A stretch of DNA of 64,000 nucleotides, taken from NCBI GenBank assembly GCA_964628235.1, contig CAZVLU010000005.1, positions 16,296-80,295 on the forward strand, read 5' to 3'. This document shows, piece by piece, positions 27,832-61,608 of the stretch. Source of the DNA: an uncultured Rhizobium sp. GTDB taxonomy: Bacteria; Pseudomonadota; Alphaproteobacteria; SMXQ01. Positions within the stretch are counted from its first letter, which is position 1; each line of letters opens with the position of its first letter. The position numbers were made by a program, and so were the translations under genes. The notes below the pieces were generated by a model, which had not been told where the DNA came from, made no database searches, and saw only the letters and a program-made list of their open reading frames with translations.

Positions 27832-28111
27832 GGCAACCTCGGCTTTGAATCTGACGATGGGGCCGGGATAAGGACCCCGACAAGATGCGAGTATCCGCGC
27901 TTATTTCTTAATTTTTTCTTGCATACTCCGTAATGCAGCGGCTTTTGCCGAATCCGAGACGGGCACGGCAAGGCTCTGAGGCGCATGGCTTTATTGTAAA
28001 GATCGCCTGTCTTTTTGTATGTCATTGTATCTAATCAGAAAGCCAATAGCCTTAGGGGGATTATCGGCTAACTGTAGGTCATGTCTGACCTGTGTAGGTC
28101 ACTTTCTGCGC

Positions 28112-28132
28112 CCAAATTGGGCGCTTGCGCTC
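28112..28132. terminator. palindromic terminator just downstream of integrase gene
   Basis: GCGCCCaaattGGGCGC perfect 6-bp stem. Confidence 0.4.
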
Positions 28133-28144
28133 AACGCCTGACGC

Positions 28145-29284
28145 CTATTTTTCCACCGCCACGAGCTTGAATTTCCCCGATCGGATAGCTTCGATCATCG
28201 CCGCTTCGGTCTGGCTGTCGGGCGCCGTGGACTGCGAGATCTGATTTACCGCGTCGAGCGACGCCTTGGGGCAAAGGTGGCCGTAGGTCCGCTCGACCAT
28301 GTCGACCGACATTTCGAGGGTCTTCGACACGGTCCAAACCGAAACGCCATTTTTAAGCATGATCGTCGCCGCCGTGTGGCGCATGACATGCGGACTGACA
28401 TTCGGCACCTTGGCCTGCCGCGCCAGAGCCTTGAAATTTTTGTAGAGGTCTGCGTCGCTGTCGAGCACAAAGTCGGAAATGCGCTCCTTGTAGGCTTGCT
28501 CCAGCACGTTCCGCAGGGTGCGCGACATCGCCACGACGGCCCGTCGCTTCTTCGTTATCTTCCGCCCCGGCACGTTGTAGTCGATCATGCCGGCGGAAAA
28601 GTCGACGCGCGACCACTGGAGCTGTTGCACCGCCGTCTTGCGCGCGCCGGTTTCGCGCGTCAGCCAGTAAAAACGCTCGATCCGCGAGAGCCGGCCGTCA
28701 CGCCGGCGCGTCTTGATAGCGGCCGCCGCCAGGCGCTCCAGCTCTTCCGGCTCCAGCCAGCGCGCACGGGCTGCGTTTTTCGGCGGGAGGTCGAAGGCGG
28801 GCACGTCGCCCGCCGGTATGAGCTTGCGTTTCCGGTCTGCGCACCAATTGAACATGGCGACCAGCATGAGCAATTCGCTCCGCACGGTCGAGCGCATGAC
28901 GCCCGAGCTGGAGCCGAGCTTGCCGCTGACGCGCTTATCCTCGTAGGCGTCGACGGCGTCCTGATTGACCTCCGGGTAGAGCAGCCGGCCGAAGTGCCTT
29001 TTCAGTCGGCGCCCGACGCGGCGGAGCGGCCCGATCGAGAGCGAGTTTTTTTCCAGGTGCTTCTTCTCGTAGACGTCCCAAAGATCTTCGACCGTGTAGA
29101 CATCGCTTGGGGCTGCGCCCTGCCCCATCAAGAGCCACTGGCCGAAGAAAGCCTTCGCAGCGCCCAAATCCTTCGTGCGCGTGCTGACGCGCTTGCTGCG
29201 TCCTCGTTTGCCCTTGGGGCTTGGTTCGGTCCAGTGAACGTACTGGACGCCGTTTTTGTCGGGCTTGAGGTAGGGCGCTGACAT
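28145..29284 (-). CDS. tyrosine-type site-specific integrase
   Basis: 379 aa; C-terminal catalytic region HVMRHTAATIMLKNGVSVWTVSKTLEMSVDMVERTYGHL. Confidence 0.9.
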   Translation of the reverse strand: MSAPYLKPDKNGVQYVHWTEPSPKGKRGRSKRVSTRTKDLGAAKAFFGQWLLMGQGAAPSDVYTVEDLWDVYEKKHLEKNSLSIGPLRRVGRRLKRHFGRLLYPEVNQDAVDAYEDKRVSGKLGSSSGVMRSTVRSELLMLVAMFNWCADRKRKLIPAGDVPAFDLPPKNAARARWLEPEELERLAAAAIKTRRRDGRLSRIERFYWLTRETGARKTAVQQLQWSRVDFSAGMIDYNVPGRKITKKRRAVVAMSRTLRNVLEQAYKERISDFVLDSDADLYKNFKALARQAKVPNVSPHVMRHTAATIMLKNGVSVWTVSKTLEMSVDMVERTYGHLCPKASLDAVNQISQSTAPDSQTEAAMIEAIRSGKFKLVAVEK

Positions 29285-29442
29285 TTCTTCACAGCCTCCT
29301 TGTATATTTCAAGATCCTCGGATTCGATCTTCGGCGGGCGGCCCGGCAGATACGCCAAAAGCCCGGCCAGGCGCAGGCGCTTGACCGTCGAGACCGAACA
29401 ACGAAGCTCTTTAGCGACTTCCGTTTCCGTCAATAGCGGCAT
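29128..29442 (-). CDS. excisionase / AlpA-like HTH DNA-binding protein
   Basis: Internal start MPLLTETEVAKELRCSVSTVKRLRLAGLLAYLPGRPPKIESEDLEIYK (HTH_17-like); 3' part overlaps integrase start, true stop/extent uncertain. Confidence 0.5.
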   Translation of the reverse strand: MPLLTETEVAKELRCSVSTVKRLRLAGLLAYLPGRPPKIESEDLEIYKEAVKKCQRPTSSPTKTASSTFTGPNQAPRANEDAASASARARRIWALRRLSSASGS

Positions 29443-29899
29443 CGTCGGCCTGCAACAGCTCGGCGACCTTGAGCGCCGTGGTGAGATAAACGAGTTTGTT
29501 GACGCGGAGGAACGCGAGGTTCGGCGCCGTGCTGCTCGCCTTGACCTCGAAGGCGGCAACGGCCGCTTCCGGCGTTTGGCTGGCGTCGTCTGCGAAGCGA
29601 ATGCCTCGATTGTAGCGGGTGGGCTCCAGCTCCTCGGGCTTCATGTCGAAGACCTTCGCCAGCTTCTCAAGGTTTTCGTCGTCCGGCAGGACGGCCGCGC
29701 GGATATAGGTCGAGATGGCCGCGCGCTGAATGTCAGCCCGGCGTGCCAATTCGCTTTGGTGCCAGCCCTTGCTGACCATCAGCTTGTAGAGACGCCGACT
29801 AAATTCCTTTTTCGCCGTCTGTTTAGCTGAAATGCGATCTTTCGCGCTCGCATCAGCTAACTCGTTTTCCCCGGTGCGGGAGCGAGGTTTTCTAGCCAT
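29411..29899 (-). CDS. XRE-family (Cro/CI-type) repressor-like protein
   Basis: HTH: LYKLMVSKGWHQSELARRADIQRAAISTYIRAAVLPDDENLEKLAKVFDM; divergent from a Cro-like gene. Confidence 0.7.
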   Translation of the reverse strand: MARKPRSRTGENELADASAKDRISAKQTAKKEFSRRLYKLMVSKGWHQSELARRADIQRAAISTYIRAAVLPDDENLEKLAKVFDMKPEELEPTRYNRGIRFADDASQTPEAAVAAFEVKASSTAPNLAFLRVNKLVYLTTALKVAELLQADDAAIDGNGSR

Positions 29900-30006
29900 C
29901 TTTTCGGCTCCAAACGATTAATTAAGTATGTCTGTTGTATATCTTAAAACAGGCGCTTGCAAGACAATTTGTCTGCATCCTCTTGACGCGCTACAGGGGC
30001 GGTTCT
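29900..30006. promoter_or_regulatory. divergent lysogeny-switch promoter/operator region
   Basis: AT-richer intergenic region between repressor (-) and Cro-like (+) genes containing tatgtctgttgtatatc and aatttgtctgcatcctcttgacg. Confidence 0.5.
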
Positions 30007-30267
30007 ATGACTAGAGGGCCTGAAACCACTAGATTTCATAAAGTAATGTTCGCCACAAAGCTTTTTCTCGAAGAAAAGTTTAAATCTCCGTCGGCGCTTG
30101 TGTCTTTTTTGTCTGCTTATGACTGTCAGACACCAAATATAAGCGCTGTAGAGAAGTGGTTTCAGCGCGGCGCGGTCCCTGGCTTTTGGTTTCCGCTGCT
30201 CGTCGGTTACTTGGAGCTGGACGAGGGGCGGCCGGTCTCGATTGTGAGATACTTTAAAAAAGGGTGA
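30007..30267 (+). CDS. small Cro-like / early regulatory protein (hypothetical)
   Basis: Start moved to MTRGPETTRF (RBS caggggcgg); low-GC gene divergent from repressor. Confidence 0.4.
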   Translation: MTRGPETTRFHKVMFATKLFLEEKFKSPSALVSFLSAYDCQTPNISAVEKWFQRGAVPGFWFPLLVGYLELDEGRPVSIVRYFKKG

Positions 30268-30270
30268 GAA

Positions 30271-30498
30271 ATGCACGGGGGAGAAACACTAGAAGCCGAG
30301 ACAAAGCTCTACTGGGAGTCGGTATCGGCGGCCCGCGGCGCGCTACGCGCCGCGCCAGGCAGCGATGTTTCCGAGCACTACGACGACATCGCGGGGATCG
30401 CGACCCACAGCGAATCTCCCGGCCTGCGCGACCATTGCAGAAATGCGCTCTCGGATCTCGAACACCACAAGCCGGGCCTATGCGGATCGCCGGCGTAG
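30271..30498 (+). CDS. hypothetical phage protein
   Basis: 75 aa, RBS gggtgag 7 nt upstream. Confidence 0.35.
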   Translation: MHGGETLEAETKLYWESVSAARGALRAAPGSDVSEHYDDIAGIATHSESPGLRDHCRNALSDLEHHKPGLCGSPA

Positions 30499-30992
30499 AC
30501 CCCGGCGCCTGGGGTGCGATCTCTTTGATCGACAATGGCCGCCTGGTCGAAGTCCACGACATGCCGCGGCTCATGCTTAGACGCGGCAAGACGGACAAGG
30601 CGGAGGTCGACGGCTACCTGCTAGGGCGGCTGCTCGCCGACCTGCGCGCCGACATCGCCTATATCGAGAAGGTCGGCGGCATCATGGGCCAATCGGCCTC
30701 CTCGTCGTTCAATTTCGGACGTGCGGCAGGCGCCCCCGAGTACGCCTTCAAAGCGCTCGGCGTGCGCGTCGAAACCGTGCCGCCGGGAACGTGGAAAAAG
30801 ACGCTCAAGCTGAACAAAGGCAAAGACGCGGCCGTCGCCCGAGCCTCGGCGCTGTGGCCGCAGATGTCGCACCATTGGGAAGAGCGCCGCGGCAATGGCA
30901 AACGCGAACAGCGAGAGGGGCGCGCCGAAAGCGCGCTGGTGGCCGAGTTCGGCCGGTTAGCAAACGATGGAGGGTCGAATGTCTTCGGGTAA
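30480..30992 (+). CDS. RuvC-like Holliday-junction resolvase (phage type)
   Basis: MRIAGVDPGAWGAISLIDNGRLVEVHDMP...AYIEKVGGIMGQSASSSFNFGRAAGA...VETVPPGTWKK: RuvC-fold catalytic D/E pattern. Confidence 0.65.
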   Translation: MRIAGVDPGAWGAISLIDNGRLVEVHDMPRLMLRRGKTDKAEVDGYLLGRLLADLRADIAYIEKVGGIMGQSASSSFNFGRAAGAPEYAFKALGVRVETVPPGTWKKTLKLNKGKDAAVARASALWPQMSHHWEERRGNGKREQREGRAESALVAEFGRLANDGGSNVFG

Positions 30993-31365
30993 TGTCGCCA
31001 CGGCGCGTTGCGCGCCCATTTCGGAAGCCGCGGAAGAGCGGATGCAGACCACAGGCCCGATCGAGGCGCCGGCCGCGGCGATATGCCGGACGGCGCACGA
31101 GCTGGTCGGCGGCGATCGCGCCCGAACGCACGGTGACAAGGTCGAGAACCATGCCAACATCGCGCGGCTCTGGAACGCCTACCTCGTCAACAAGCACCCC
31201 TCGGCGCCGCCGCACGTCCCTGTCATAGAGCCGCGCGACGTCGCGCTCATGATGGCGCTCCTCAAGGTCGCGCGCACGCAGCACGGCGCTTTCAACCTTG
31301 ACGATTACATCGACTTGGCGGGCTACGCCGGGGTCGCCGGAGAGATCGCTCAAAAAACTCGTTGA
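30979..31365 (+). CDS. conserved phage hypothetical protein
   Basis: GDKVENHANIARLWNAYL...DVALMMALLKVAR...DDYIDLAGYAG; family not confidently named. Confidence 0.45.
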   Translation: MSSGNVATARCAPISEAAEERMQTTGPIEAPAAAICRTAHELVGGDRARTHGDKVENHANIARLWNAYLVNKHPSAPPHVPVIEPRDVALMMALLKVARTQHGAFNLDDYIDLAGYAGVAGEIAQKTR

Positions 31366-31464
31366 CGTTGTATGTCGGTTGTATGATGCTGACAGACACC
31401 GCCAGACGTTTTGTTCCTGCTTTCACGCTTTCCGGCTCTACCGAGGCCCACCTTGCCCGCACCA

Positions 31465-32823: not shown

Positions 32824-32824
32824 A

Positions 32825-35781: not shown

Positions 35782-35866
35782 CTGCGCCTGGAGTGTCTGA
35801 TAAATCTTGCCGGCGGCATACAAAGCCGCCGGCAGGGCAACCCTCAAAATGCACAGGAGAATTTCT

Positions 35867-36199
35867 ATGGACAACAGCCACGGCGCCGACGCCGCCATTT
35901 ACAAGCAAGGCCCCCGCCAAGGCGTCTACGCCTCCGAGCCGGCCTTACAAGCCGGTAGCGCACGCCGCACGCCGTTCCATGCGCTCCATGACGTCATGGA
36001 ACGGCTCGACCAAGTCGAAAGCCGTCTGCTCACCATCGCTGCGCGGCTCGCGGGCACGTTCCCCTTGCCGGCGCTCGACGAACCGAAAGCCAGCGGCGAC
36101 GGCATCTTCCACGCGCTCGAAGTCGGCGCGCAGACCGCCTCCAGCCGTCTCGATCGCATGAACGGCGCCATGTCCGTCATCGAGAGCAACCTCCCGTAA
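35867..36199 (+). CDS. hypothetical phage protein
   Basis: RBS aggag; 110 aa. Confidence 0.4.
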   Translation: MDNSHGADAAIYKQGPRQGVYASEPALQAGSARRTPFHALHDVMERLDQVESRLLTIAARLAGTFPLPALDEPKASGDGIFHALEVGAQTASSRLDRMNGAMSVIESNLP

Positions 36200-36263
36200 G
36201 ACCACGAAACGGCGGCCCGCCTCGGCCGCCGTTTTTCCTCCCTACAGCACACAGGAAACCATC

Positions 36264-36995
36264 ATGGAATTGACCCCGAACGATGTCCGCTTCGTCGTGC
36301 AGCGTCTCCCGCGCGACGTTCGCGACATGCTGTCGCACCACCCCCGCAGGCTCTATGTCGGAGGCGGTTTCGTCCGCGCTGTCGTCGCCGGCGAGACGCC
36401 CAACGACATCGACGTTTTCGGCCCGAGCGCCGAATATCTCGAAAACGTCGCGAACCTGCTCGCCGCCAATCGGCCAGGCTCGAAGCTGCACAAATCGAAA
36501 AACGCGATCACCCTGCTCACGCCCGAGCGCATGGCGGTCCAATTCATCACGCGCTGGACCTTCGAGAAGCCGCGCGACGTCATCCGCTCCTTCGACTTCA
36601 CCGTCTGTCAAGCGGCCGTCTGGCGCGCCGGCAGCCAGTCCAACGCGAAGTGGGAGTCGGAAGTCGGCCCCGACTTCTATGTCGACCTGGCCGGACGGCG
36701 GCTCGTCTACACGAGCCCGATCCGCGAGGAGGAGCCGGGCGGCTCCATGCTGCGCGTCATCAAATACGTCAAACGCGGCTACTCGATCCAGGTCGCCAGC
36801 CTCGGCGCCGTGATCGCCCGCCTCACGAGCAAGGTCCGTGACAGTCACCTCGCCGGCGACGAGGCCGGCGCGGCCCTCTGCATCGCCGGGCTTCTACGCG
36901 AGGTCGACCCGCTCTTCGTGATCGACGGTTTCGAGATCGTCGACGACCACGCGCCGATCGAAGGCGACGTGCAGGAGGGCCTTGCCAATGGTTAA
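36264..36995 (+). CDS. Pol-beta superfamily nucleotidyltransferase (CCA-adding/poly(A) polymerase head-like)
   Basis: GGGFVRAVVAGETPNDIDVFG matches GGxVRDxLLG...DIDI motif of the PolyA_pol/CCA-enzyme head domain. Confidence 0.5.
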   Translation: MELTPNDVRFVVQRLPRDVRDMLSHHPRRLYVGGGFVRAVVAGETPNDIDVFGPSAEYLENVANLLAANRPGSKLHKSKNAITLLTPERMAVQFITRWTFEKPRDVIRSFDFTVCQAAVWRAGSQSNAKWESEVGPDFYVDLAGRRLVYTSPIREEEPGGSMLRVIKYVKRGYSIQVASLGAVIARLTSKVRDSHLAGDEAGAALCIAGLLREVDPLFVIDGFEIVDDHAPIEGDVQEGLANG

Positions 36996-38906: not shown

Positions 38907-39602
38907 TTGATCGAAATTCTTCAAGGCGACTGCCTGGCGGAGATGAAAAAGCTTCCCTCCGACAGCGTCGATGTCGTCGCAACAGACCCGCCGTTCTCCA
39001 GCGGAACGCGGAAAGAGGGCGCGAAGGGCCTGCGTAAAAGCATGAGGCGCGGCGTCGCCAGCAATGCTTGGTTCGGCTCCGACAGTCTCACGACAAATGG
39101 CTTTCTTTGGCTCATGCGGTCGTGCGCCGTCGAGTGGCAGAGACTTCTAAAGCCAGGCGGTCACGCGCTTGTTTTTATCGACTGGCGCATGATGTCGGCT
39201 CTTGCCGGCGCGCTAGAAAGCGCCGATCTGCGCCACGCCGGACTCCTCGTATGGGACAAAACCTATTTCGGGATGGGAACTACCTTTAGAAATCAGCATG
39301 AGCTGATCCTACACTTCACGAAAGGCGTCCCGCCGGAGCCTGCGCGGCGCGATGTCGGGAACGTGCTCGCCTTCAAGCCCATACGCAACGGCCTCCACCC
39401 GACGGAAAAGCCGACAGAGCTTTTAGTCGAATTGCTCTCCGTCGTTGCTTTCAAAGGCGCGGTCGTCTTAGACCCCTTCGCCGGCTCCGGCGCTACGCTG
39501 GTCGCAGCGCAGCGTCAAGGTTGCAGCGCCATCGGCATTGAGCGTGAACAGCACTACGTCGACATCATGCGAAAGCGAACCGCAGGAGACGTTTTCGCAT
39601 GA
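38907..39602 (+). CDS. site-specific DNA methyltransferase (N6-adenine/N4-cytosine, beta class)
   Basis: TTG start; GDCL; catalytic DPPF; AdoMet motif DPFAGSGAT. Confidence 0.85.
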   Translation: MIEILQGDCLAEMKKLPSDSVDVVATDPPFSSGTRKEGAKGLRKSMRRGVASNAWFGSDSLTTNGFLWLMRSCAVEWQRLLKPGGHALVFIDWRMMSALAGALESADLRHAGLLVWDKTYFGMGTTFRNQHELILHFTKGVPPEPARRDVGNVLAFKPIRNGLHPTEKPTELLVELLSVVAFKGAVVLDPFAGSGATLVAAQRQGCSAIGIEREQHYVDIMRKRTAGDVFA

Positions 39603-41755: not shown

Positions 41756-41774
41756 GTGTCTTTTGTATGTCTAT

Positions 41775-41815
41775 TTTGTATGTTGACAAGTGACATACAT
41801 CGGACATATAGTCCT
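41775..41815 (+). promoter_or_regulatory. sigma70-like promoter embedded in palindromic operator
   Basis: TGTATGTTGACAagtgACATACA (TTGACA -35 inside inverted repeat) followed by TATAGT. Confidence 0.45.
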
Positions 41816-43820: not shown

Positions 43821-44125
43821 GACAGCCCGTGACATACCGCCGGCGCGCGCCGAAGACGCCAGGGCTGCACGACGAAGTGCGGATCTCGCTCAACGACGTC
43901 CACCTAGCGCACCGCGAGGCGGCTCTCGTCGCCGGCATGATGGCCGGCCACTGTCGAAAGCGGCCGCTGCTCGAATTTATGTTCGGCGCCGACAACCGCG
44001 TCAGCGATCGCTACCTCCGCGAGCTGGTGGGGCGCACCCGTAAGCGCCTCGCCGGGTCCGGCTTCACCATCACCGACTACGAACCCCGCGGCTACGCGAT
44101 CATTCTGGAGGCCAAGACACCATGA
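43817..44125 (+). CDS. hypothetical phage protein
   Basis: 102 aa coupled ORF. Confidence 0.35.
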   Translation: MRQPVTYRRRAPKTPGLHDEVRISLNDVHLAHREAALVAGMMAGHCRKRPLLEFMFGADNRVSDRYLRELVGRTRKRLAGSGFTITDYEPRGYAIILEAKTP

Positions 44126-45960
44126 AGCGTAAAATTCTAGTGGCGGATCTGCTCTGCGGCGCGGGCGGCTCCTCGACCGGCGCGGCGCAAGCGCTCGTCG
44201 AGCTTGGCCTCGATATGGAGCTGGTCTGCGTCAATCACTGGAATGTCGCGATCGAGACCCACAAGGCGAATCACCCGCACGCCCGGCATTACTGCCAGGA
44301 CATATCGACTGTCCGGCCGCACCTTGTGGTGCCCGAGGGCTATCTCGACCTGCTCATGGCGAGCCCCACCTGCACGCACCACTCCGTCGCGCGCGGCGGA
44401 AAGCCGACCAGCGACCAGCAGCGCTCCGACCCTTGGCATATCATAACCTGGCTGACCGAGCTGCGGGTCAAGCGAATCATGATCGAAAACGTATGGGAGT
44501 TCGTGAAGTGGGGTCCGGTCGACCCGCGCAGCGGCAAGCCCATCAAGTCGCGGCAGGGCGAATACTTCAACGCCTGGATCGAGACCATGCGCCGGCTAGA
44601 CTTCGAGCTGGAGTGGCGCAAGCTGAACGCGGCCGACTACGGCGAAGCGACGACGCGGCAGCGCTTCTTTCTCCTCGGCCGCAGCGACCGCAAGCGTATC
44701 GCCTGGCCCTCGCCGACGCACACGAAGCGGCAACCCGAAGCGCCGGCCGGTCTGCACCCTTGGCGGCCGGCGCGCGAGATCATCGACTGGAACATCAAGG
44801 GCCGGTCGATCTTCACGCGCAAGAAGCCGCTCGCGCCGAAGACCCTCGCGCGGATCTATGCGGGCGCCGTCAACCTTCAATGGCCCGAGCCGTTCCTCGT
44901 CATCTTGCGAAACCATATGGGCGCGCAATCCGTCGACGCGCCGTTGCCGACTGTGGCGGCGAACGGAACGCATATCGGCCTGGCGCAGCCCGTCGTCATG
45001 AACGGCCGGAAGGGCTCGAAGGCCAAAGGCGTAGAGACAGCGCCGATCCCGACGCTCGACACCAAGGGCGGCGTATGGCTCGCAGAGCCGGCGCTGATCG
45101 CCACGGCCCACGGAAACGCCGCGACGGAGAAGAACCCGAACAAGCGGCGCGCCAAAGGCGTCAGCGAGCCCTTGGGGGCGATCCACGCGAGCGGCGGTAA
45201 CTTCGCCGTCGCCGAGCCTCTGATCCTCTCGCAGCAAGCCAGCGGTCGGCCACGTTCGGCCGAGGAGCCGCTACCGACGATCTTGACCGGCGGCGCCGGC
45301 ACGGCGGAGCGGCCGGGCTGCGCGCGTCACGCTGTCGTGCAGCCTTTCGTCCTGTCCCGGCTCGGAAACGGCGCGCCCCGCCCGACCGACCAGCCGACGC
45401 CTACGCAGGTCGCGACGCACAGCCACGTTCTAATCGCGCCTTACTACAGCAGCGGCTCGGGCGAAACGTGCAAGAGCGCCGACGTGCCGCTCTCCTCCCT
45501 GACGACTAAGGCGCGCTTCGGCATGGTCATCCCCGTCACGCACAGCGGCGACGAGAGCAACCGCTCGCGCGACGTCGAGACCGACGGCTTGCCGACCGTA
45601 ACGGGCGCCAATCGCGGCGAGCTGGCTTTTATAACAGCCGCCTTCGGCGAGCGCGAAGGGCAGGCCCCGCGGGTTCATGATCTCGGAGAGCCGGCGCCGA
45701 CGATCTGCGCGACCGGCGGCAGCGTCAACCTGGTCGAGCCGACAGAGAGCTACGACATTCTATTTCGGATGCTCGAACCGCATGAGCTGGCGGCCGCGAT
45801 GGGCTTCAACGACGAAGACGCGACATACGCATTCAGCGGAAACAAGACCGAGCAGATAAAGCAAATCGGAAATGCCGTGTCCGTCCGGCAGTCAAAGGCC
45901 CTCGTCAAAGCGATGCTGGCCGACAGCGCCGAGCCGAGCAAGGCGGAGCGAGCGGCGTAG
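44122..45960 (+). CDS. DNA (cytosine-5)-methyltransferase
   Basis: Motif I LLCGAGGSS, catalytic-Cys region ASPTCTHHS, ENV motif IMIENVWEF, motif X IGNAVSV; long variable region. Confidence 0.8.
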   Translation: MKRKILVADLLCGAGGSSTGAAQALVELGLDMELVCVNHWNVAIETHKANHPHARHYCQDISTVRPHLVVPEGYLDLLMASPTCTHHSVARGGKPTSDQQRSDPWHIITWLTELRVKRIMIENVWEFVKWGPVDPRSGKPIKSRQGEYFNAWIETMRRLDFELEWRKLNAADYGEATTRQRFFLLGRSDRKRIAWPSPTHTKRQPEAPAGLHPWRPAREIIDWNIKGRSIFTRKKPLAPKTLARIYAGAVNLQWPEPFLVILRNHMGAQSVDAPLPTVAANGTHIGLAQPVVMNGRKGSKAKGVETAPIPTLDTKGGVWLAEPALIATAHGNAATEKNPNKRRAKGVSEPLGAIHASGGNFAVAEPLILSQQASGRPRSAEEPLPTILTGGAGTAERPGCARHAVVQPFVLSRLGNGAPRPTDQPTPTQVATHSHVLIAPYYSSGSGETCKSADVPLSSLTTKARFGMVIPVTHSGDESNRSRDVETDGLPTVTGANRGELAFITAAFGEREGQAPRVHDLGEPAPTICATGGSVNLVEPTESYDILFRMLEPHELAAAMGFNDEDATYAFSGNKTEQIKQIGNAVSVRQSKALVKAMLADSAEPSKAERAA

Positions 45961-46888: not shown

Positions 46889-47046
46889 GTCTAAACGCGC
46901 CTCGATTGTATGGCGTGTCTGATAAATCTAGCCGCAAGTGCGACAGTTCGCCTACACTCGCCAGCCCCTAAGCGAAAGAGGCGACCCGCCCCGAAGAGCG
47001 AGCCGCCTCCTCCCACCACCTACTGCCGCACAGCAGAGACCCATTT

Positions 47047-49272
47047 ATGACGAAAACCGCAGCGTTTAGCAAGTTCTGGTCTCTCGGCTTCCGCTCGCTC
47101 GTGCCGATCACGCCGCCGGGCGCGGCCGTCTCCGAGAAATCGACACTGGCGAAACGACCGGGCTCGATCGGCAAAGCCGTCGGGATTCGGGGCGGAGATG
47201 GGCTCTGGCGCGGCTTCGATTGGGTCAAGCATCATACATCGGCGACAGACATCGAGGCATGGGCCGAGATGGGCGCCGGCGTCGGCATCCGCACGGGCGA
47301 CGGCATCATCGCCATCGACGCCGACACCTTCAACGCGAAGTATGTCGAGGAGATCGCCAAGGCGGCGAAGGCGCTGCTCGGCGACGCGCCCGTGCGCATC
47401 GGCAACCCACCTAAATTCCTTCTGCTCTACGCCGTCTCCGAGCCCGTGGCCTATCAGCGCGTGCTGTTCGACGACGGGCTGCCGTTCCGCCCTGGCGCCG
47501 AGCCGCGCGTCGAGATGCTGTCGGACGGCCGGCAGTTCGTCGCCGACGGTATCCACCCCTCCACCGGCAAGCCCTACACCTGGCCGGGCCGCGGGCTGTG
47601 GCCCCGCGACAAGCTCACCACCGTCACGCCGCAACAGCTCAACGCCTTCTTCGCCCGCCTCACCGAGATCCTGCCGGCAGCCGCGCGCGTCGAGACGACG
47701 GCAGCCAACGACCGCAGCAACATCGACCAGGCGTCGCTGGAAGGTGACAGCAAGACCGTCGAGGCCGCCGTGCGCGCCCTCCCCAACACCACCGAGCTAT
47801 TCCCGACCTATGACGACTACATCCGCGTCGGCGCCGCCATCAAGGGCGCGGCGCAGGGTCTCCCCGATCACGGTCTCGCCCTCTTCCTCGAATGGGCGGA
47901 GCGCTGGTCGGGCGGCAACGACCTGGAGCGCGCGGCGGCCGACTTCGCCCGGATCAAGCCGCCTTACGAGCTTGGCGCGCGCTGGCTCTACGAGATGGCC
48001 GACAGCCACGGCAAGGGCGCGTTCCGCCATGCCGACGTTTGGTTCGAGCCGCTGGCCGAGGTCGAGCTAAATCCCTTTGAGGCCGCCCGCCTCAAGCAAG
48101 CCGAAGAGACGCGCATCGAGCCGATCCGCTGGATACGGCCGAGCGAGTGGAAGGGCCGCACGCCGCCGGATCGCGAATGGGAGGTGGAAGGCTGGATACC
48201 CAAGGGCGAGGTGACGCTGCTCTACGGCGACGGCGGCATCGGCAAGACCCTCCTGGCCCACCAATACGCCACAGCGGCCGCGGCGGGCGTCTCATGGCTC
48301 GGGCTGAACACCCGGCAAGCCAAGGTCATGTGCTTTTTCTGCGAAGACAGCGAGGCCGAGCTGCACCGCCGGCAAATCGACATCAACAACGCCCTCTGCC
48401 TCGACTACGACCAGGCCGACGCCAATCTGCGCATCGCCAGCCGCAAGTACATGGACAACCTGTTCATTCTTTGGGACCGCAACACGGGGGCGATGAAGCG
48501 GCAAGCCGTATGGGCGCAGCTCCTAGAAGACGCCGTCGCCTTCGGCGCGGAGGTCATCGTCGTCGACACCATCGCCGACACCTACGGCGGCTCCGAGATC
48601 GACCGCGGCCAAGTCAACGCTTTCGTGAAGTCCTGCCTCGGCCGGCTCGCCTCCGAGATCCAAGGCTCGATCATCGCCCTCGGGCACCCGTCGATCGCCG
48701 GCAAGACAGAAGGCCGATCCGGCAGCACCGCCTGGAGCAACGCCGCGCGCTCGCGCCTGTTCCTGCGCTACCCGAAGAACGTCGAGAAGGGCGACATTCG
48801 CGAGCTGGAGGGCATGAAGCTGAATTACGGGCCGAAGGGCTCGCTGCTCAAGCTCCAGTGGAAGCGCGGCGCGTTCGACGTGCTGGCCGGTTCGACGGCG
48901 GGCACGGTCCATCTAAACGCCTTGAACGACCCCAAGACAGCGCCCGCCTTCGAGCGCATCGAGGATATGGCCGAGCGCGCCGTGCTCGCCGCCGTGGCGG
49001 CCGCCGAGGCGGAAGGCGTCGCGCTCGGGGCGTCCTCGCGGTCGCCCGTCTACGCGCCGCGCGTGCTCAAGCAGCGCGAGCCGGAAGCGCTGGCCGTCTA
49101 CACGGCCGAAGAGGTCGAGACGGCGCTAAGGAGCCTAGAACGGAGGGGGCTTGTTCAAGCCAAAGAGGTTGCGCGCCGTGGCAACCGTCACCCCGTCATG
49201 GGCTATGCCGTCGTCCGGCAAAAGCCGGAAGCGGCGGACAATCTGTCCGAAGGGTCGGGCGTTTTCCAGTGA
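47047..49272 (+). CDS. bifunctional primase-polymerase (Prim-Pol) / RecA-like helicase-loader replication protein
   Basis: N-terminal GAGVGIRTGDGIIAIDADT Prim-Pol motif; central Walker A LLYGDGGIGKT (AAA_25-like), Walker B VIVVDTIAD. Confidence 0.85.
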   Translation: MTKTAAFSKFWSLGFRSLVPITPPGAAVSEKSTLAKRPGSIGKAVGIRGGDGLWRGFDWVKHHTSATDIEAWAEMGAGVGIRTGDGIIAIDADTFNAKYVEEIAKAAKALLGDAPVRIGNPPKFLLLYAVSEPVAYQRVLFDDGLPFRPGAEPRVEMLSDGRQFVADGIHPSTGKPYTWPGRGLWPRDKLTTVTPQQLNAFFARLTEILPAAARVETTAANDRSNIDQASLEGDSKTVEAAVRALPNTTELFPTYDDYIRVGAAIKGAAQGLPDHGLALFLEWAERWSGGNDLERAAADFARIKPPYELGARWLYEMADSHGKGAFRHADVWFEPLAEVELNPFEAARLKQAEETRIEPIRWIRPSEWKGRTPPDREWEVEGWIPKGEVTLLYGDGGIGKTLLAHQYATAAAAGVSWLGLNTRQAKVMCFFCEDSEAELHRRQIDINNALCLDYDQADANLRIASRKYMDNLFILWDRNTGAMKRQAVWAQLLEDAVAFGAEVIVVDTIADTYGGSEIDRGQVNAFVKSCLGRLASEIQGSIIALGHPSIAGKTEGRSGSTAWSNAARSRLFLRYPKNVEKGDIRELEGMKLNYGPKGSLLKLQWKRGAFDVLAGSTAGTVHLNALNDPKTAPAFERIEDMAERAVLAAVAAAEAEGVALGASSRSPVYAPRVLKQREPEALAVYTAEEVETALRSLERRGLVQAKEVARRGNRHPVMGYAVVRQKPEAADNLSEGSGVFQ

Positions 49273-49470
49273 TTCGCGCTGCGTCAAGCTGCGTCGAGCT
49301 TCCTTGCAAGTCATTGATTTTGCTTGCGTCGAGCTTCGGCGGTTGTATGGCTGCGTCAAGCTGCGTCAAGCTGCGTCAAGCTTCCACGCAAACCATTGAG
49401 ATAAAAGAAAATTGGTGCTGTGCGTCAAGCTGCGTCGGGGTTCTGCGTCAAGCTTCACCCCTAAAGGGGG
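49273..49470. repeat. iteron array (putative phage replication origin)
   Basis: 8-9 copies of (C)TGCGTCRAGC within 200 bp incl. a 3x perfect tandem, AT-rich core gagataaaagaaaattgg, immediately 3' of primase gene. Confidence 0.7.
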
Positions 49471-49572
49471 AGGGCGCGGGCTTCGCCGCCCGCTCGCCGC
49501 CGCCCTCTCCCCTGGGGTCTTGGGCGCGGGGCTTCGGACAAATTGTCTTAGCAACGGCCGAGACCAGGCCCC

Positions 49573-52087: not shown

Positions 52088-52145
52088 CTGTATGGCTGTT
52101 GTATGCCTGTTGTATGTCTGTCGTCAACCGCCTTGATTGACAAAA
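52088..52145. promoter_or_regulatory. divergent promoter region with triple TGTTGTATG direct repeat
   Basis: ctgtatggcTGTTGTATGccTGTTGTATGtctgtcgtcaaccgccTTGATTGACAaaaa. Confidence 0.45.
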
Positions 52146-52884: not shown

Positions 52885-52940
52885 GACATTCTGTCTGCTA
52901 TCGCTTGACTGAATGACAGACACCGACCTACATTCCGCGT
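52885..52940 (+). promoter_or_regulatory. candidate late promoter flanked by palindromic TGTCTG operator
   Basis: TGTCTGctatcgcTTGACTgaatgaCAGACAccgaccTACATT (TTGACT-N18-TACATT). Confidence 0.4.
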
Positions 52941-53484
52941 AGGCGTCCTGGCGAGAAACCCCGCGCGTAGTTGCTGCCGCAAGCCAGTGGACACGGGCGG
53001 ACCTAACCGCCGGGGCGCCTAGGCGAAAAAACACGGTGAACCTCCCGGCCGTAGGACGGCGCAAGCCGGATCGCGTGATGGTGGCCCGCAAGGGATGGGA
53101 GCCCATCTTTCGCTTATCACCGCGTAACCGTTTCGGCGGCCCGATTTCTTCCACGCCCCCGCAGGAATGCGGAGACGCTGCCAGCCAGCAGTAGGCGCCG
53201 CTTCACAGCGGCAGGGAGTCGGGCCGCCGCAGCGCCGTATCGGTGAGTATCTGGGCGAAGGTGCGCGCCTTCGTCTGCCCCGCGCAGGGCTACCCCGTGA
53301 AGGGGCCGGATGCTCACCGCTGCGGCGACGGAGTAAGCAGGGCCGTACCTGGGCTAACAAGCGACTGTGAAAAGGTCGCCCTATAGCCCGTCAAGTGAGG
53401 GGTAGGACGCCGGGAAGCGAGGCCCGGACTTAGCTAGGGTTGCGCCTAGCCCGCGGTATATCGACAGCCACCGAAGGAGCCACC

Positions 53485-53825: not shown

Positions 53826-53868
53826 AACGCCGCCGGCGCCCTTCCACGGTTCCGGCGGCGTTTTCTTG
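53826..53868 (+). terminator. rho-independent terminator after Gp49-like gene
   Basis: GAACGCCGCCGG-16nt-CCGGCGGCGTTttcttg, 11-bp perfect stem. Confidence 0.55.
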
Positions 53869-53932
53869 ATTTTGTATGATGATGTCTGTAGGTTGCGCCT
53901 GACAACCCGCGTCGCGGCATACATTTAGCCCC

Positions 53933-57539: not shown

Positions 57540-57669
57540 GCCCGGCTGCGAATGGACGTCGCCGATTTACTTGGACAAGGACGACGTTCTGACGGAGCGA
57601 ACGGAGCGCGCCATCATCGCGCTCAACGAAGCCGGCGAGAAAATCTGCGGCTGGCAGCCGCCACAGTGA
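57463..57669 (+). CDS. o-spanin-like outer-membrane lipoprotein (Rz1-like)
   Basis: Lipobox LLSVGAC; starts inside 57309 ORF in another frame (overlapped spanin architecture); RBS ggaggtg. Confidence 0.45.
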   Translation: MKSIRGLIALLLLSVGACGTSGPAVKPGCEWTSPIYLDKDDVLTERTERAIIALNEAGEKICGWQPPQ

Positions 57670-57675
57670 GGATCT

Positions 57676-59319
57676 ATGTCTAGCTCCGCTTCCAGCAGCA
57701 CTCGACCGATCCGGCGCCCCGGCGTGCCGGCCGTCGTTCGCGCGCGCGCCGACGATGTCGAGCTGGCCGAGATCAATAAGCGGATCAAGCTTCTCGAACG
57801 TCAACAGCGCGCCCTCGAAGCGCATGACGATCTGCTCGTCTACACCAAATTCACCATGCCCCACCCCGAGGCGCCGAACGACGTCAACCGTTCGCGCTAC
57901 GAGGACGAGCTGTTTCACCGCGAGGTGGCGAAGGCGCTCGAAGCTGTCGAGCGCGGCGAAATCGTCCAGCTCATCTATTGTATGCCGCCCCGCCACGGCA
58001 AGACCGAGATGGCGACGAAGCGCATGGCCGCCTGGTGTAGCGGCCGGCATCCCGATTGGGACGTCGCGGTCGCTTCCTACTCGGATACGATGGCGCAGGA
58101 CATGGGCGCCGACACGCGCGCTATCCTGACGTCGGCGCAGCACAAGCAGGTGTTCCCGAGCTATCGCCTGCGGCGCGGCGGAAACGCCAAGGATAACATT
58201 CAAACCGATCGGGGCGGCCGTATCGTTTTCGTCGGCCGCGGCGGCGCGCTCACGGGCCGCGGTATGCATATCGGCCTCGGCGACGATCTGTTTAAGGACC
58301 ACGAAGAGGCGCGGTCGCAGGCCATTCGAGACCAGGCTTGGAATTGGTTCACGAAGGTCTTCATGACTCGCCGAATGGGCCTCAAGCTGGTCATCCTGAC
58401 GATGACGCGCTGGCATAGCGACGACATCATCGGCCGCCTCACCGACCCGGAAAATCCCTACTACAACGCCATCGAGGCGAAAAAATGGAAGATTATCCGC
58501 CTGCCGGCCATCGCCGAAGACGACGACCCGCTCGGCCGCACGCCTGGCGAGGCGTTGTGGCCGGCGCGCTACGACCTGGATTTTCTTGAGAGCCAGCAGC
58601 GCCTCGATCCTCTCGGCTTCGCCTCGCTCTACCAGCAGCGGCCGAGCGTCGCCGACGGCGTGCTGTTTCGTCGCGAGAACGTGCGCTACTACAAGCCGAG
58701 CGAGCTTCCCGAGGATCTGCGGATCTATTGCGCGAGCGATCACGCCGTTTCGACCGGCCAGCGCAACGACCCGACCGTTTTGCTGAAAGTCGGCATCGAC
58801 CGTCAGAGCAACATCTATCTGCTCGAATGCTACTGGCAGAAAGTGAAAACCGACGTCGCTGTCGAAGCGATGCTCGAAATGGGCCGGGGCAACATGCGCC
58901 CGCTGATCTGGTGGGCGGAAAAAGGTCATATCTCGAAGTCGATCGGGCCATTCCTCTACAAGCGCATGGTGGAGACGCAGACTTACCTGAATATCCGCGA
59001 AGTGCCGCCGATCGGCGACAAGGAGCAACGCGCGCAGTCGATCGCCGCGCGGCACGGCATGGGGAAGGTGTTTTTCCCGATTGGCGCGCTTTGGACCGAG
59101 CGCGCGATCGAGGAAATGCTCGCCTTCCCGAACGGCACGCACGACGATTTCGTCGACACGCTGGCTTACATCGGCCTTGGCTTGCAGAGCCAATTCAAAG
59201 CCGGCGCGCCCGCGAAGAAAGAAAACGAGCTGCCGAAATTCGGATCGCTGGCTTGGGTCAAGTACATGGACAAATTCAAGCGGATGCAGCGCGAGCAGAC
59301 CGCCGCCGGAGGCTTTTAG
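57676..59319 (+). CDS. terminase large subunit
   Basis: Walker A CMPPRHGKTEMATK; C-terminal nuclease domain; Terminase_6-like. Confidence 0.9.
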   Translation: MSSSASSSTRPIRRPGVPAVVRARADDVELAEINKRIKLLERQQRALEAHDDLLVYTKFTMPHPEAPNDVNRSRYEDELFHREVAKALEAVERGEIVQLIYCMPPRHGKTEMATKRMAAWCSGRHPDWDVAVASYSDTMAQDMGADTRAILTSAQHKQVFPSYRLRRGGNAKDNIQTDRGGRIVFVGRGGALTGRGMHIGLGDDLFKDHEEARSQAIRDQAWNWFTKVFMTRRMGLKLVILTMTRWHSDDIIGRLTDPENPYYNAIEAKKWKIIRLPAIAEDDDPLGRTPGEALWPARYDLDFLESQQRLDPLGFASLYQQRPSVADGVLFRRENVRYYKPSELPEDLRIYCASDHAVSTGQRNDPTVLLKVGIDRQSNIYLLECYWQKVKTDVAVEAMLEMGRGNMRPLIWWAEKGHISKSIGPFLYKRMVETQTYLNIREVPPIGDKEQRAQSIAARHGMGKVFFPIGALWTERAIEEMLAFPNGTHDDFVDTLAYIGLGLQSQFKAGAPAKKENELPKFGSLAWVKYMDKFKRMQREQTAAGGF

Positions 59320-61539
59320 ATGGCTATGGAAGACGATAGCGACGACCAAATGGACATGCTCTCGTCCGAGCCGGACGAGGCCGCCACCGGCCCCGCCTCC
59401 GAGGACGACAAGGAGAAGCGTGAGTCCGACGTGCGCCTTGCCGCGCGCATCGTCAAGACGATCCGCGACGACAAGAAGTTTCACGACAAAGCTTTCAAGC
59501 GGATGCAGCGCGACATGCAGGTCGCGATGCACGGGCACGAGAAGGACTGGAGCGAGAAAAACTACAAGGCGAACATCACGGGCCGCCACGTCAAGCAGAA
59601 GACGGCCGCGCTCTACGCCAAAAACCCGAAGGCTGTCGCGCGCCGCCGGGAAACGCTCGACTTCGCCATTTGGGACGAGACGCCCGAATCGCTCCAGCTC
59701 GCCTTTATGCAAATCCAGCAGGCGGCGCAGGCGACGGCGCTCGCCGCGCAGACGCCGCCGACCGTCTCGCAAGACCCTTTGACTGGCGCGGTTGTCGAGG
59801 TTCCGGCGCAACCGCAGATCCCGCCCGGCTTCGCCGAGGCGCAGGCCCTTGTCGCAGATTTCCAGCAGGGTTTCGCGCGGCGCCAGCAGCTCAAGAAATT
59901 CGGCCGGACGCTCGAAATTCTATTCGCGCAGGCGCTTCGCGAGCAGCAGCCGGTAGACTTCAAGACCGCCATGAAGCAGCTCGTTCGGCGTGGCTGCACG
60001 ACCGGCGTCGGCTATGTCGAGCTTGGTTTCCAACGTGAATACGGCCCGGCGCCGGAGACCGTGGCGACCCTCACCGACGCGCGGACGCGCATCGAGCATT
60101 TGCGCCGGCTGTCCGAAGAGGCCGCAGAGGGCGAGATCGAGGAGATGGACGGCGAGATGGCCGAGCTTGAGCGCTCTGTCGCGTCGCTCCAGCAGGAAGA
60201 AGAGATCTTGTTGCGCGAGGGTCTTATTTTCGACTTCCCCGCCAGCACGAAGGTTATTCCCGATCGGCTCTGCAAGTCGCTTGTCGGCTTTATCGGCGCG
60301 CGCCATGTCACCATCGAATATCTCTACACGCGCGACGAGATCAAAGAACGATTCGGCGTCGAGATCGGCAGTAATTATGTGCCCTACTCCGTCGAAGGGT
60401 TGCGGCAGTCCGGCGGCTTGGCCGACGACGACGGGCAGGTCGAATTTGATTTGAACGACGACAGCAGCAACCGCAAGCGCGGCGGAGATCTGGTCTGCGT
60501 CTGGAAGCACTACGACAAGCCGAGCGGTCTCGTTTACATCGTCTGCGACGGCTACAAGGGCTTTTTACGCGACCCGGCGCCGCCCGATGTCTTCGTTTCC
60601 GACTTCTGGCCGTTGTACGCTTTGACGTTCAATGCCGTGGAGAGCGAAGACGAGCTTTTCCCCCCGTCGGACGTCACGCTGCTTCTCGATATGCAGCGCG
60701 AATATAATCGCTCGCGGCAGGGCCTACGCGAGCATCGCGACGCGGCGCGCCCGCGTTGGATTTACACCAACGGCACCTTCGATGAAGAGGCGATTCCCGA
60801 CTTTCAGAAGCTCAAGCCGTTCGAGGCTCTTGGCGTGGATAAAGACCCCGCGACAAAGATCTCCGACGTGCTCGAAACGATTCCTGTTCCCGGCGTCGAC
60901 CCGAACCTCTACGAAACGGCGCAGCTCTTCAAGGACATGCAGCTCGTCGCCGGCACGCAAGAGGCACAGCTTGGCGGCCTTTCCAAGACAACGGCCACCG
61001 AGAGCGCGATTGCTGCCGATTCGTCCGCCACGTCGGACGGCTCCAGCATCGACGATCTCGACGGTTTCTTGAGCCGGGTCTCGCGCGCGTCGGGGCAAAT
61101 CCTCTTTCGCGAGATGACGCCGGAGCAGGTCACGAAGCTCGTCGGGCCTGGCGCCGTGTGGCCTGACGATTTGACGCTCGCGAATATCGCCGACGAGGTC
61201 TTCCTTGAGGTTGAAGCCGGCTCGACGGGCAAGCCCAATCAGGCGATCGAAATTCGCAATTGGAAAGAGATGCTGCCGTTCCTCATTCAGATGGGGAACA
61301 TTCCGGGGCCGTGGCTCGCTCGGGAGAGCCTGCGTCGTCTCGATGACCGCCTCGATCTCACCGAAGCCGTGGCGGCCGGCATCCCGTCGATCGTCGCGCA
61401 GAACCAAAATGCGCAGCCCGCCACCGGAAACGCGGCCACCGACCCGGCGTCACAAGGCCCCGCCGGAGCGTCCAACGGCCCCGCTCCGCCTGGCGGGCCG
61501 GTCGGCACGGGACCGGCCTTCGGCAACAATCAAATGTAG
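59320..61539 (+). CDS. portal protein
   Basis: 739 aa ORF directly after TerL (TAGATG), RBS ggagg; size/position typical of portal. Confidence 0.65.
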   Translation: MAMEDDSDDQMDMLSSEPDEAATGPASEDDKEKRESDVRLAARIVKTIRDDKKFHDKAFKRMQRDMQVAMHGHEKDWSEKNYKANITGRHVKQKTAALYAKNPKAVARRRETLDFAIWDETPESLQLAFMQIQQAAQATALAAQTPPTVSQDPLTGAVVEVPAQPQIPPGFAEAQALVADFQQGFARRQQLKKFGRTLEILFAQALREQQPVDFKTAMKQLVRRGCTTGVGYVELGFQREYGPAPETVATLTDARTRIEHLRRLSEEAAEGEIEEMDGEMAELERSVASLQQEEEILLREGLIFDFPASTKVIPDRLCKSLVGFIGARHVTIEYLYTRDEIKERFGVEIGSNYVPYSVEGLRQSGGLADDDGQVEFDLNDDSSNRKRGGDLVCVWKHYDKPSGLVYIVCDGYKGFLRDPAPPDVFVSDFWPLYALTFNAVESEDELFPPSDVTLLLDMQREYNRSRQGLREHRDAARPRWIYTNGTFDEEAIPDFQKLKPFEALGVDKDPATKISDVLETIPVPGVDPNLYETAQLFKDMQLVAGTQEAQLGGLSKTTATESAIAADSSATSDGSSIDDLDGFLSRVSRASGQILFREMTPEQVTKLVGPGAVWPDDLTLANIADEVFLEVEAGSTGKPNQAIEIRNWKEMLPFLIQMGNIPGPWLARESLRRLDDRLDLTEAVAAGIPSIVAQNQNAQPATGNAATDPASQGPAGASNGPAPPGGPVGTGPAFGNNQM

Positions 61540-61608
61540 GTCGTCTGTCTGATACTTGCTAAACCGCCATACAAACGCTAAACTCCCCACCATTTTAAGG
61601 AGCTACCC

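Follow-up and report, generated by a model that had tools for sequence, protein, structure and literature searches.

Phased hexamer arrays in an alphaproteobacterial prophage: candidate distributed operators of its XRE-family repressor

Overview of the locus

The stretch of DNA analysed here (64,000 nucleotides of contig CAZVLU010000005.1 from an uncultured Rhizobium sp., about 64% G+C; hereafter the window) consists of host DNA up to position ~27,900 and of a prophage that begins at about 28.0 kb and runs beyond the last position. The prophage carries, at the junctions of its transcription units, arrays of the short word TTGTATG and its variants (Table 1). On the basis of their sequence, arrangement and distribution among related phages, we hold with moderate confidence that these arrays are distributed operators of the prophage's own XRE-family repressor.

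The host part encodes tRNA-Pro, RibD, NrdR, serine hydroxymethyltransferase, RpiB and a MarR-like protein. In the prophage, the XRE gene adjoins the integrase gene and is divergent from a cro-like gene, which opens the rightward early operon. The genes for replication and DNA metabolism encode DUF6378, an SNF2 helicase, a DUF2800 nuclease, an Enc34-type single-stranded DNA (ssDNA)-binding protein, GapR and two HNH nucleases, as well as N6 and C5 DNA methyltransferases, a family A DNA polymerase (PolA), an RHH protein and a primase-helicase. An origin-like iteron block follows the primase-helicase gene, and after it comes a leftward block that includes DUF932. The late genes encode N4 gp49-like and tailspike-like proteins, a cell-wall hydrolase, terminase, portal and capsid proteins.

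Table 1. Arrays, single sites and immunity-region features of the prophage (positions in the window)
Feature	Position	Strand	Details
Attachment-site (att)-proximal array past integrase 3' end	28015-28100	+	TTGTATGTCATTGTATC, then TGTAGGTCA-TGTCTGACC-TG-TGTAGGTCA
Integrase gene	28145-29284	-	
XRE-family (HTH_3) repressor gene	29411-29899	-	162 amino acids (aa); Pfam HTH_3 3.3e-10; PHROG transcriptional repressor
TGTCTGTTGTATA	29929-29941	+	30 bp upstream of XRE start codon; probable autoregulatory site
Palindrome GACAATTTGTC	29963-29973		between divergent promoters, 10 bp upstream of rightward -35
Rightward switch promoter	29983-30011		-35 TTGACG 29983-29988; -10 TATGAC 30006-30011
cro-like gene	30007-30267	+	86 aa from ATG 30007, 73 aa from ATG 30046; open reading frame (ORF) and translation
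TGTCTG-N11-CAGACA	30110-30132		inside cro-like ORF, ~100 bp downstream of rightward promoter
RuvC-like resolvase gene	prophage early region		
SNF2-operon promoter array	31362-31398	+	TTGACG, then TTGTATGTCGG TTGTATGATGC (11-bp direct repeat), inverted CAGACA
GTGTCTGATAAATCT junction	35793-35833	+	3' of stop codon of ssDNA-binding gene
Array at RHH-gene promoter	41763-41812	+	TTGACA 41783, N18, TATAGT 41807; 11/12 consensus matches
Array ahead of primase-helicase gene	46906-46956	+	TTGTATGGCG-TGTCTGATAAATCT, then inverted CCTACA; in 158-bp gap
Gene-internal pair	47233-47251	-	TGTCTGTCGCCGA-TGTATGAT, 13 bp apart; inside 5' part of primase-helicase gene
Single TTGTATG	49343-49349	+	among origin-like iterons
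Array upstream of DUF932 (leftward gene)	52089-52120	+	CTGTATGGC, TTGTATGCC, TTGTATGTC at exact 11-bp steps, with overlapping TGTCTG
52905 promoter array	52885-52934	+	GACATTCTGTCTG, -35 TTGACT 52905, inverted CAGACA in spacer, inverted CCTACA over -10 TACATT 52929
Late-operon start array	53866-53923	+	TTGATT-N17-TAGGTT; spacer and -10 occupied by TTGTATGATGA-TGTCTG-TAGG
Pre-capsid array	61535-61584	+	TGTAGGTCGTC-TGTCTGATAC (11 bp apart), -35-like TTGCTA 61556, inverted CATACAA in spacer, -10-like TAAACT 61579

Over-representation of the words

TTGTATG occurs 13 times in the window against 1.58 expected, a count reached in none of 100 shuffles, with 11 copies on the plus strand and two on the minus strand; no 7-mer of the prophage is more strongly over-represented (z=21), and the next-ranked words are overlapping versions of TTGTATG. 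The host part (window 1-27900) contains no copy. The original prediction, made from the letters of the stretch, had described a dense and prophage-wide motif family, and these counts confirm it; every site that it listed is present where it was placed, and the similar density in host DNA that it had named as the contrary outcome is not found in the 28-kb host part. It had also been right that 35788-35810 and 46910-46930 share an exact 15-mer: GTGTCTGATAAATCT is found at 35793 and 46915 and nowhere else in full, the copy at 61546 being partial (TGTCTGATAC). At 52088-52120 there are indeed three copies, but the first of them reads CTGTATG rather than TTGTATG.

Because A+T-rich words may look enriched where intergenic DNA is A+T-rich, the words were recounted within the 3141 bp of prophage intergenic DNA only. 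Here TGTATG was found 15 times against 0.46 expected, TGTCTG 11 times against 0.79, and TGTAGG six times against 0.75. The enrichment is not explained by A+T-richness. The pattern TGT(AT/CT/AG)GNC has 20 matches in the 3.1 kb of intergenic DNA, four in 33 kb of prophage coding DNA and one in 27.8 kb of host DNA, and other values of NN in TGT-NN-G-N-C give no comparable contrast between the three compartments. In simulations that preserve composition per 500-bp block, with TGT(A/C)TG and TGTAGG as the words scored, the prophage had 50 hexamers over 36 kb compared with 16.8 +/- 4.0 simulated, 12 clusters of at least two sites compared with 0.40, and eight clusters of at least three compared with 0.02. 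The 12 clusters hold about 30 hexamers over 34 kb, and sit at the att-proximal end, at the immunity switch, at the starts of early, replication and late operons, and at the origin.

Two occurrences are probably due to chance. These are the sole hexamer pair of the host part (TGTCTGATGTCTG, 26408-26420, minus strand), which overlaps the start codon of the serine hydroxymethyltransferase gene, and the TTGTATG at 57978, inside the terminase gene. Searching the literature for the words brought up nothing but unrelated primers and guide RNAs.

Array grammar

In nearly all clusters of the window, forward copies (one to three) come first and inverted copies (one or two) after them. Across 19 related loci, the distances between same-strand sites peak sharply at 11 bp, the spacing of 15 of the 60 pairs within 60 bp. 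Convergent pairs outnumber divergent ones by 43 to 8, their distances grouping at 15–17, 24–25, 35 and 45–48 bp, in steps of about one helical turn. An array is made of two to four sites, with direct repeats 9–11 bp apart and a convergent inverted copy some 15, 25 or 35 bp off. The 11-bp phasing and the convergent bias together suggest that protein subunits sit on one face of the DNA, in mutual contact. Of the 129 TGTATG sites counted in the family, 92 fall between genes or at the edge of a gene, compared with a share of about 16% for intergenic DNA. Their orientation relative to the flanking genes is inconsistent, with 21 against 18 for sites between co-directional genes (13 loci).

These properties bear on an alternative in which the words would be linkers at module boundaries that favour mosaic recombination, or chance matches in A+T-rich intergenic DNA. 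The sites do lie at module junctions of clearly mosaic genomes. However, the enrichment persists within intergenic DNA and against the simulations of local composition, homologous exchange needs more than six to eight bases, and the phasing and the convergent bias indicate protein binding. We regard this explanation as extremely improbable and, on these observations, as largely ruled out already.

Placement on promoters

A consensus scan returned two strong promoters, 41783 (TTGACA-N18-TATAGT) and 52905 (TTGACT-N18-TACATT), and both are surrounded by sites. At 41783, two direct TTGTATG copies lie upstream of or abut the -35 element, and an inverted CATACA lies in the spacer. The promoters at 31362, 53866 and 61556 are weaker and were read by eye. 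At the start of the late operon, an inverted CATACA is found 25 bp downstream, and an intrinsic terminator (53829-53859) just upstream. The junctions at 35793, 46915 and 61546 have TGTCTGATA in common, followed by poor matches to -35 and -10 elements; at the first of them, GTGTCTGATAAATCT is followed by a 9-bp G+C hairpin (35809-35833) with an inverted CATACAA within its loop. In nine relatives, the orthologous SNF2 promoters have CATACA 15–33 bp downstream of TTGAC, and the same arrangement is seen at the rightward switch promoter of relatives. The location of sites on the core promoter is an argument for repression.

The arrays could instead be activator sites, at which the XRE protein acting positively, or another phage protein, recruits polymerase to weak middle and late promoters. 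Lambda CII (TTGC-N6-TTGC) and OmpR/PhoB-type proteins act at helically phased direct repeats, and 11-bp direct repeats are the commonest arrangement here. Direct copies lie upstream of the -35 element at 41763/41776 and 61535/61546, and the poor -35 and -10 elements that follow TGTCTGATA at its three junctions might need help. We nevertheless consider activation unlikely, as the copies at 31362, 53866 and 52905 fill the spacer, the -10 or the +1 position, where binding blocks polymerase, and the most site-rich promoter, 41783, is already close to consensus. Moreover, the motif goes with the lysogeny module, and relatives lacking the XRE gene, which must express the same middle and late genes, do not have it.

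Half-site variants and a separate palindrome

The main word can be written TTGTATGnC: the preceding T is present in 13 of 18 core copies, and the C at +2 likewise in 13 of 18. Another form, TGTAGGTC, which the first reading of the sequence overlooked, recurs at 28073, 28093, 61535, 52932 (minus strand) and 53887. It lies 4–11 bp upstream of TGTCTG at four of these positions (28073, 61535, 52932 and 53887), and TGTATG lies 9–10 bp upstream of TGTCTG at 46907 and 53873. At the junction 3' of the ssDNA-binding gene, the window has TGTCTGAT, while two related loci, L163 and L164 (relatives are designated by L numbers), have TGTATGAT. Given this sharing of slots and the swap at the L163/L164 junction, we treat TGTATG, TGTCTG(AT) and TGTAGGTC as variants of one half-site, TGT(A/C)(T/G)G, of which TGTCTG appears to be a positional variant of TGTATG. 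As a family-wide word, TGTAGGTC was rejected, since a count per locus finds TGTAGGT enriched in the window, L007 and L108 only.

Not all TGTCTG copies belong to the hexamer family. Those at 29970 and 52892, counted as members in the original prediction, are the right halves of an 11-bp palindrome, GACA-N3-TGTC (GACAATTTGTC at 29963-29973 and GACATTCTGTC at 52885-52895), which is also found at 49237-49247, at 49537-49547 and, inside a gene, at 36324. Almost every relative shows enrichment of the palindrome (L004, L006, L048, L088-L091, L095-L097, L099 and L112-L114; for example, 8 against 0.3 in L112), those without the XRE gene among them. In relatives it often takes the form TTGACA-NNN-TGTCC, thus containing the -35 hexamer TTGACA, and it is found ahead of the cro-like gene and of the SNF2 operon also where no repressor gene exists. 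The cro-like homologues (24–47% identity) occupy the same place in temperate relatives and in XRE-less ones, and every one of them has the palindrome upstream. We read GACA-N3-TGTC as a motif separate from the hexamer arrays, probably the site of the cro-like protein or a feature of the promoter. The earlier proposal of a phage regulator for early, replication and late operons alike remains the best reading of the hexamer arrays, but a single regulator is too simple, as at least two motifs had been pooled.

Two known types of site were considered for the words and rejected. A pho box does not fit, the conserved core being TTGTATG instead of TGTCA, and neither does a site for IHF, as the 15-mer, read by eye, does not match WATCAR-N4-TTR.

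The XRE-family repressor

Homologues of the XRE protein are few, with 40 among 5.8 billion proteins. The AlphaFold2 model has a confident helix-turn-helix (HTH) domain (residues 30–99), a disordered linker (99–116) and a confident 43-residue beta-beta-alpha unit (117–159). In a Foldseek comparison of the model with the PDB only the HTH was matched, by C.AhdI, C.BclI, P22 c2, 434 Cro, SinR and DdrO, and phmmer against all PDB chains (E<=1) together with Foldseek gave matches to the HTH_3 domain only and no stoperator repressor. No S24 or LexA-like autocleavage domain was found, Pfam returning HTH families only and the model containing no peptidase fold. The lack of a peptidase domain suggests that induction probably does not proceed through RecA-stimulated self-cleavage.

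Co-distribution of the words with the repressor type

We fetched about 45 loci with a PolA of at least 40% identity from species genomes (Parvibaculaceae, Bradyrhizobium, Bosea, Aminobacter and Hyphomicrobium), from IMG/VR and from one JGI metagenome. PolA homologues are numerous, many of them on contigs of 45–50 kb; a search of the species genomes with the single PolA protein found no match, whereas an alignment-based search did return relatives. GTATGTC occurs 114 times against 32.5 expected in these ~45 loci, and 146 times against 131.7 in 118 distant relatives (PolA ~30%).

When the loci are grouped by a homologue table of the window's proteins and by the XRE alignment, the words follow the type of repressor. 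The 15 loci (window excluded) with a main-type XRE, whose recognition helix reads xRxxISxYIRG, have 42 TTGTATG against 8.3 expected, 79 GTATGTC against 13.2 and eight TGTCTGAT against 5.2. In three loci with an alternative XRE (helix NRNVVNTTENE; L097, L099 and L102) the corresponding figures are 0 against 1.0, 3 against 2.0 and 21 against 0.8, and in the 24 loci with no XRE match they are 13 against 19.9, 23 against 16.0 and 8 against 6.7. The last group includes at least seven loci that have a complete early region and the cro-like gene, without a divergent repressor. The PolA identities of motif-bearing and motif-less loci interleave, which argues against a simple clade effect. Three loci that were retrieved through XRE homologues alone have the same pattern.

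Sites are kept at orthologous junctions although the flanking DNA has diverged: beside the integrase gene, upstream of the XRE gene, before the SNF2 gene, after the ssDNA-binding gene, after the PolA gene, before DUF932 and before the tailspike gene. Equivalents of the att-proximal array adjoin the integrase gene in L003 (1083-1210), L007 (3613-3681) and L163 (11858), and nearly all main-type relatives have an TGTATGTC-type site 20–60 bp upstream of the XRE start. At the place orthologous to the DUF932 array, phased repeats of TGTAGG and CATACA are found in L108, which also has TGTATGATCGACCTACA...CAGACA before the tailspike gene, at the place of the late-operon array. In the Labrenzia prophage L163, all 12 TGTATG copies are in the prophage, at the junctions seen in the window, and none is in the adjoining 8.5 kb of host DNA (12000-20447). 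A blind scan of IMG/VR for TGTATGTC-N3-TGTATGTC found 96 stretches, most of them in A+T-rich contigs, where chance matches are expected. In 29 cases the contig has 58% G+C or more; 22 of these contigs code for homologues of proteins of the window prophage, and the three that span the immunity region (L203, L225 and L227) have an XRE homologue.

In the three loci with the alternative XRE, the word TGTCTGAT-N-TGTC(A), of 13–15 bp, occurs both between genes and, at three conserved positions, within them. It may represent a second immunity specificity of the phage family.

The original prediction had named the XRE repressor, the RHH protein and GapR as candidate binders, and of these XRE alone fits the distribution in relatives. 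RHH is missing from most of the motif-bearing relatives (L086, L098, L109, L005, L008 and L115), and GapR is found in motif-less ones. The cro-like protein was rejected as the binder of TTGTATG on the same grounds as GapR. Also rejected was g42047, a conserved 68-aa protein encoded after RHH: L103 and L115 have the motif without g42047, and L097 has g42047 without the motif.

A host factor had also been suggested; it might be a transcription factor, for instance a response regulator, that ties the prophage operons to a host signal. Phased direct repeats suit winged-helix response regulators, and the word is common to prophages of several Hyphomicrobiales and related genera. However, the 27.9 kb of host DNA in the window and the 8.5 kb in L163 lack TTGTATG altogether, there is no enrichment in XRE-less relatives or in temperate relatives with the other XRE helix, and the tandem form is hardly seen in G+C-rich viral contigs outside this phage family. 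We consider a host factor very unlikely.

It also seems improbable that the binder is another protein of the lysogeny module, such as an excision factor and switch regulator resembling Cox or Apl. Such a protein would account for arrays beside the integrase gene and att end (28015-28100, and in L003, L007 and L163) and in the switch region. Phased direct repeats, which the arrays resemble, are the sites of P2 Cox and 186 Apl, and the integrase gene has the same distribution in relatives as the XRE gene. On the other hand, no gene of this kind was identified, the first early gene (cro-like) being present in motif-less relatives as well. Proteins of this type act at two loci, compared with eleven here, including late operons, and the word changes along with the recognition helix of XRE.

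Other features of the prophage

At 49281-49454, directly 3' of the primase-helicase gene, the 10-bp iteron GCGTC(A/G)AGCT is present eight times, with three contiguous copies. Together with an A+T-rich stretch, these iterons are a probable replication origin. The matching place holds different iteron arrays in L099 (17957-18187, CGTAACA) and in L090 (15906-16270, 33-bp units). ACGTAACA in L099 and CTTGTACTCCG in L090, which we had considered as junction motifs, proved to be origin-like tandem arrays.

At 28073-28100, a short way outside the integrase gene, the sequence AGGTCA-TGTC-TGACCT forms a perfect 6-bp inverted repeat between two copies of TGTAGGTCA, and might belong to the attachment site or serve as a small terminator. 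Between the 52905 promoter and the gp49-like gene there are about 500 bp of G+C-rich DNA (52935-53439) with no convincing ORF, and an intrinsic terminator with a T run (53829-53859) stands ahead of the late genes. The 500-bp segment might serve late control, either as a long structured leader or as a non-coding RNA; it has no match in Rfam, as is true of the whole prophage, and blastn with 52.0-54.0 kb found no similarity among all fetched loci. A near-identity search of GenBank phages with 28.0-52.9 kb found no match either.

The interval between the ssDNA-binding gene and GapR (35867-36995 in the window, 4025-4288 in L163) carries variable cargo. In the window it encodes a 243-aa protein assigned to PF26128 Gad2 (anti-Gabija) in a precomputed table, while a separate Pfam scan gave no match; in the Labrenzia prophage L163 it encodes an Acb2/Tad1-hairpin protein. 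The slot looks like a hot spot for anti-defence genes. The prophage also encodes DNA methyltransferases of the N6/N4 type and of the C5 type (612 aa; 38943-39602 and 44122-45960, respectively), in addition to GapR.

A model for distributed repression

We infer that the arrays are bound by the XRE protein. The half-site of its operator would be TGT(A/C)(T/G)G, with TTGTATGnC as the best form. Its N-terminus would provide an HTH resembling those of 434 Cro and P22 c2, followed by the flexible linker and by the small C-terminal domain, which probably joins subunits. Such a linker would let subunits take half-sites of varied spacing and orientation on one face of the helix. At the switch, SNF2, RHH, primase, DUF932, late and capsid units, the arrays lie over or around the -35, spacer, -10 or +1 of sigma-70-like promoters, and there are also sites at the origin and at the att-proximal end. 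In a lysogen, cooperative binding of XRE would directly silence every transcription unit, and the site just upstream of the XRE gene would mediate autoregulation. Within this scheme, TTGTATGTCGGTTGTATG and the array at 41763-41799 are predicted to be XRE-bound sequences.

Several observations weigh against this model. The link to XRE is correlative and involves few independent lineages; the integrase gene has the same distribution, as would any unrecognised lysogeny gene, and L006 and L007 have a main-type XRE yet little enrichment of TGTATG. The three loci with the alternative XRE are close relatives, and about one third of their TGTCTGAT matches are at conserved coding positions. Several of the proposed promoters are weak matches that were read by eye and not returned by the scan, and the rightward promoter of the window lacks the +1 site that relatives have. 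The copies at 41763/41776 and 61535/61546 lie upstream of the -35 element, a position also typical of activators. Finally, TGTAGGT, with its restricted enrichment, could belong to another protein.

Comparison with known repressor systems

The functionally closest system is that of the stoperators of Cluster A mycobacteriophages (L5 gp71, Bxb1, TipsytheTRex), where one repressor has more than 20 genome-wide sites in promoters and intergenic gaps, the consensus co-varies with the repressor, and one autoregulatory site lies upstream of the repressor gene (PMC9283540, PMC6550527). The window prophage likewise has many distributed sites in promoters and intergenic gaps and a site upstream of its repressor gene, predicted to be autoregulatory, as well as a word that co-varies with the repressor type among relatives. 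The grammar, however, is different. L5 uses a single asymmetric 13-bp site in one orientation only relative to transcription, while the arrays here are built of a word of 6–8 bp, phased and with a convergent inverted copy, and have no orientation rule. The excess of plus-strand TTGTATG in the window notwithstanding, nearly every array contains an inverted copy, and a strict stoperator-type strand orientation was rejected at the level of the family. The proteins differ as well: the L5 repressor is a monomer with an HTH and a second, 'Stoperator' DNA-binding domain, whereas the window's XRE has an HTH_3 domain with no second DNA-binding domain detectable and no sequence similarity to solved stoperator repressors. 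Stoperator hosts are actinobacteria, and the hosts here are alphaproteobacteria. A stoperator-bound repressor blocks transcription elongation, and by analogy the gene-internal pairs at 30110-30132 and 47233-47251 are candidates for such a block.

The immunity region itself is reminiscent of the lambdoid switch (lambda, 434, P22), with a divergent repressor and cro-like gene, sites between them (29929-29941 and 29963-29973) and an adjacent integrase gene, and the HTH of XRE is structurally nearest to those of P22 c2, 434 Cro, SinR and the C-proteins. It departs from that model in having no S24 peptidase or RecA-cleavage domain and no tripartite 17-bp palindromic operators. Furthermore, the prophage is not limited to two operator regions: 11 additional places, as far as 61.5 kb, carry arrays, and each transcription unit, the late ones included, has sites.

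Other temperate phages share single features with the window. The C repressor of Rhizobium phage 16-3, which has an alphaproteobacterial host, recognizes the half-sites ACAA and TTGT at two spacings, and the C repressors of Bacillus phi105 and of P2, HTH repressors of temperate phages as is 16-3 C, use direct-repeat operators. The word described here starts with TTGT, but the 16-3 half-sites ACAA-N4/6-TTGT face opposite to TGTATG...CATACA, and 16-3, phi105 and P2 have two to six sites near the immunity region rather than sites across the prophage. The repressor of Streptomyces phiC31 has many intergenic operator copies upstream of early genes, which is similar; these copies, however, are inverted repeats of 17 bp that do not extend beyond the early region, and the phiC31 repressor belongs to an unrelated family. 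OmpR/PhoB boxes resemble the arrays in their 11-bp direct repeats, but the arrays have no counterparts in the host flanks of the window and L163, their core is TTGTATG and not TGTCA, and the word is missing from related phages of similar hosts that lack this XRE type.

Implications

In the textbook temperate phages of Proteobacteria, two early promoters are repressed and the remainder is controlled by a cascade. To our knowledge, phages in which the repressor acts directly through sites at every operon are mainly actinobacteriophages, especially mycobacteriophages. More tentatively, and with rather less than even confidence, we propose that the linker-bearing XRE silences a whole alphaproteobacterial prophage in a stoperator-like manner of independent origin, and that a switch of specificity from TTGTATG to TGTCTGAT, along with the recognition helix, defines immunity groups. 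If so, direct genome-wide silencing would have evolved more than once, with a different DNA grammar, and immunity groups would be predictable from the recognition helix of XRE. The system might then also supply compact repressible promoters for alphaproteobacteria, where regulated promoters are few. The phage family concerned includes prophages of Bradyrhizobium, Bosea, Aminobacter, Mesorhizobium, Hyphomicrobium and Labrenzia and many metagenomic contigs, and the word provides a simple sequence marker for such prophages and for the boundaries of their operons.

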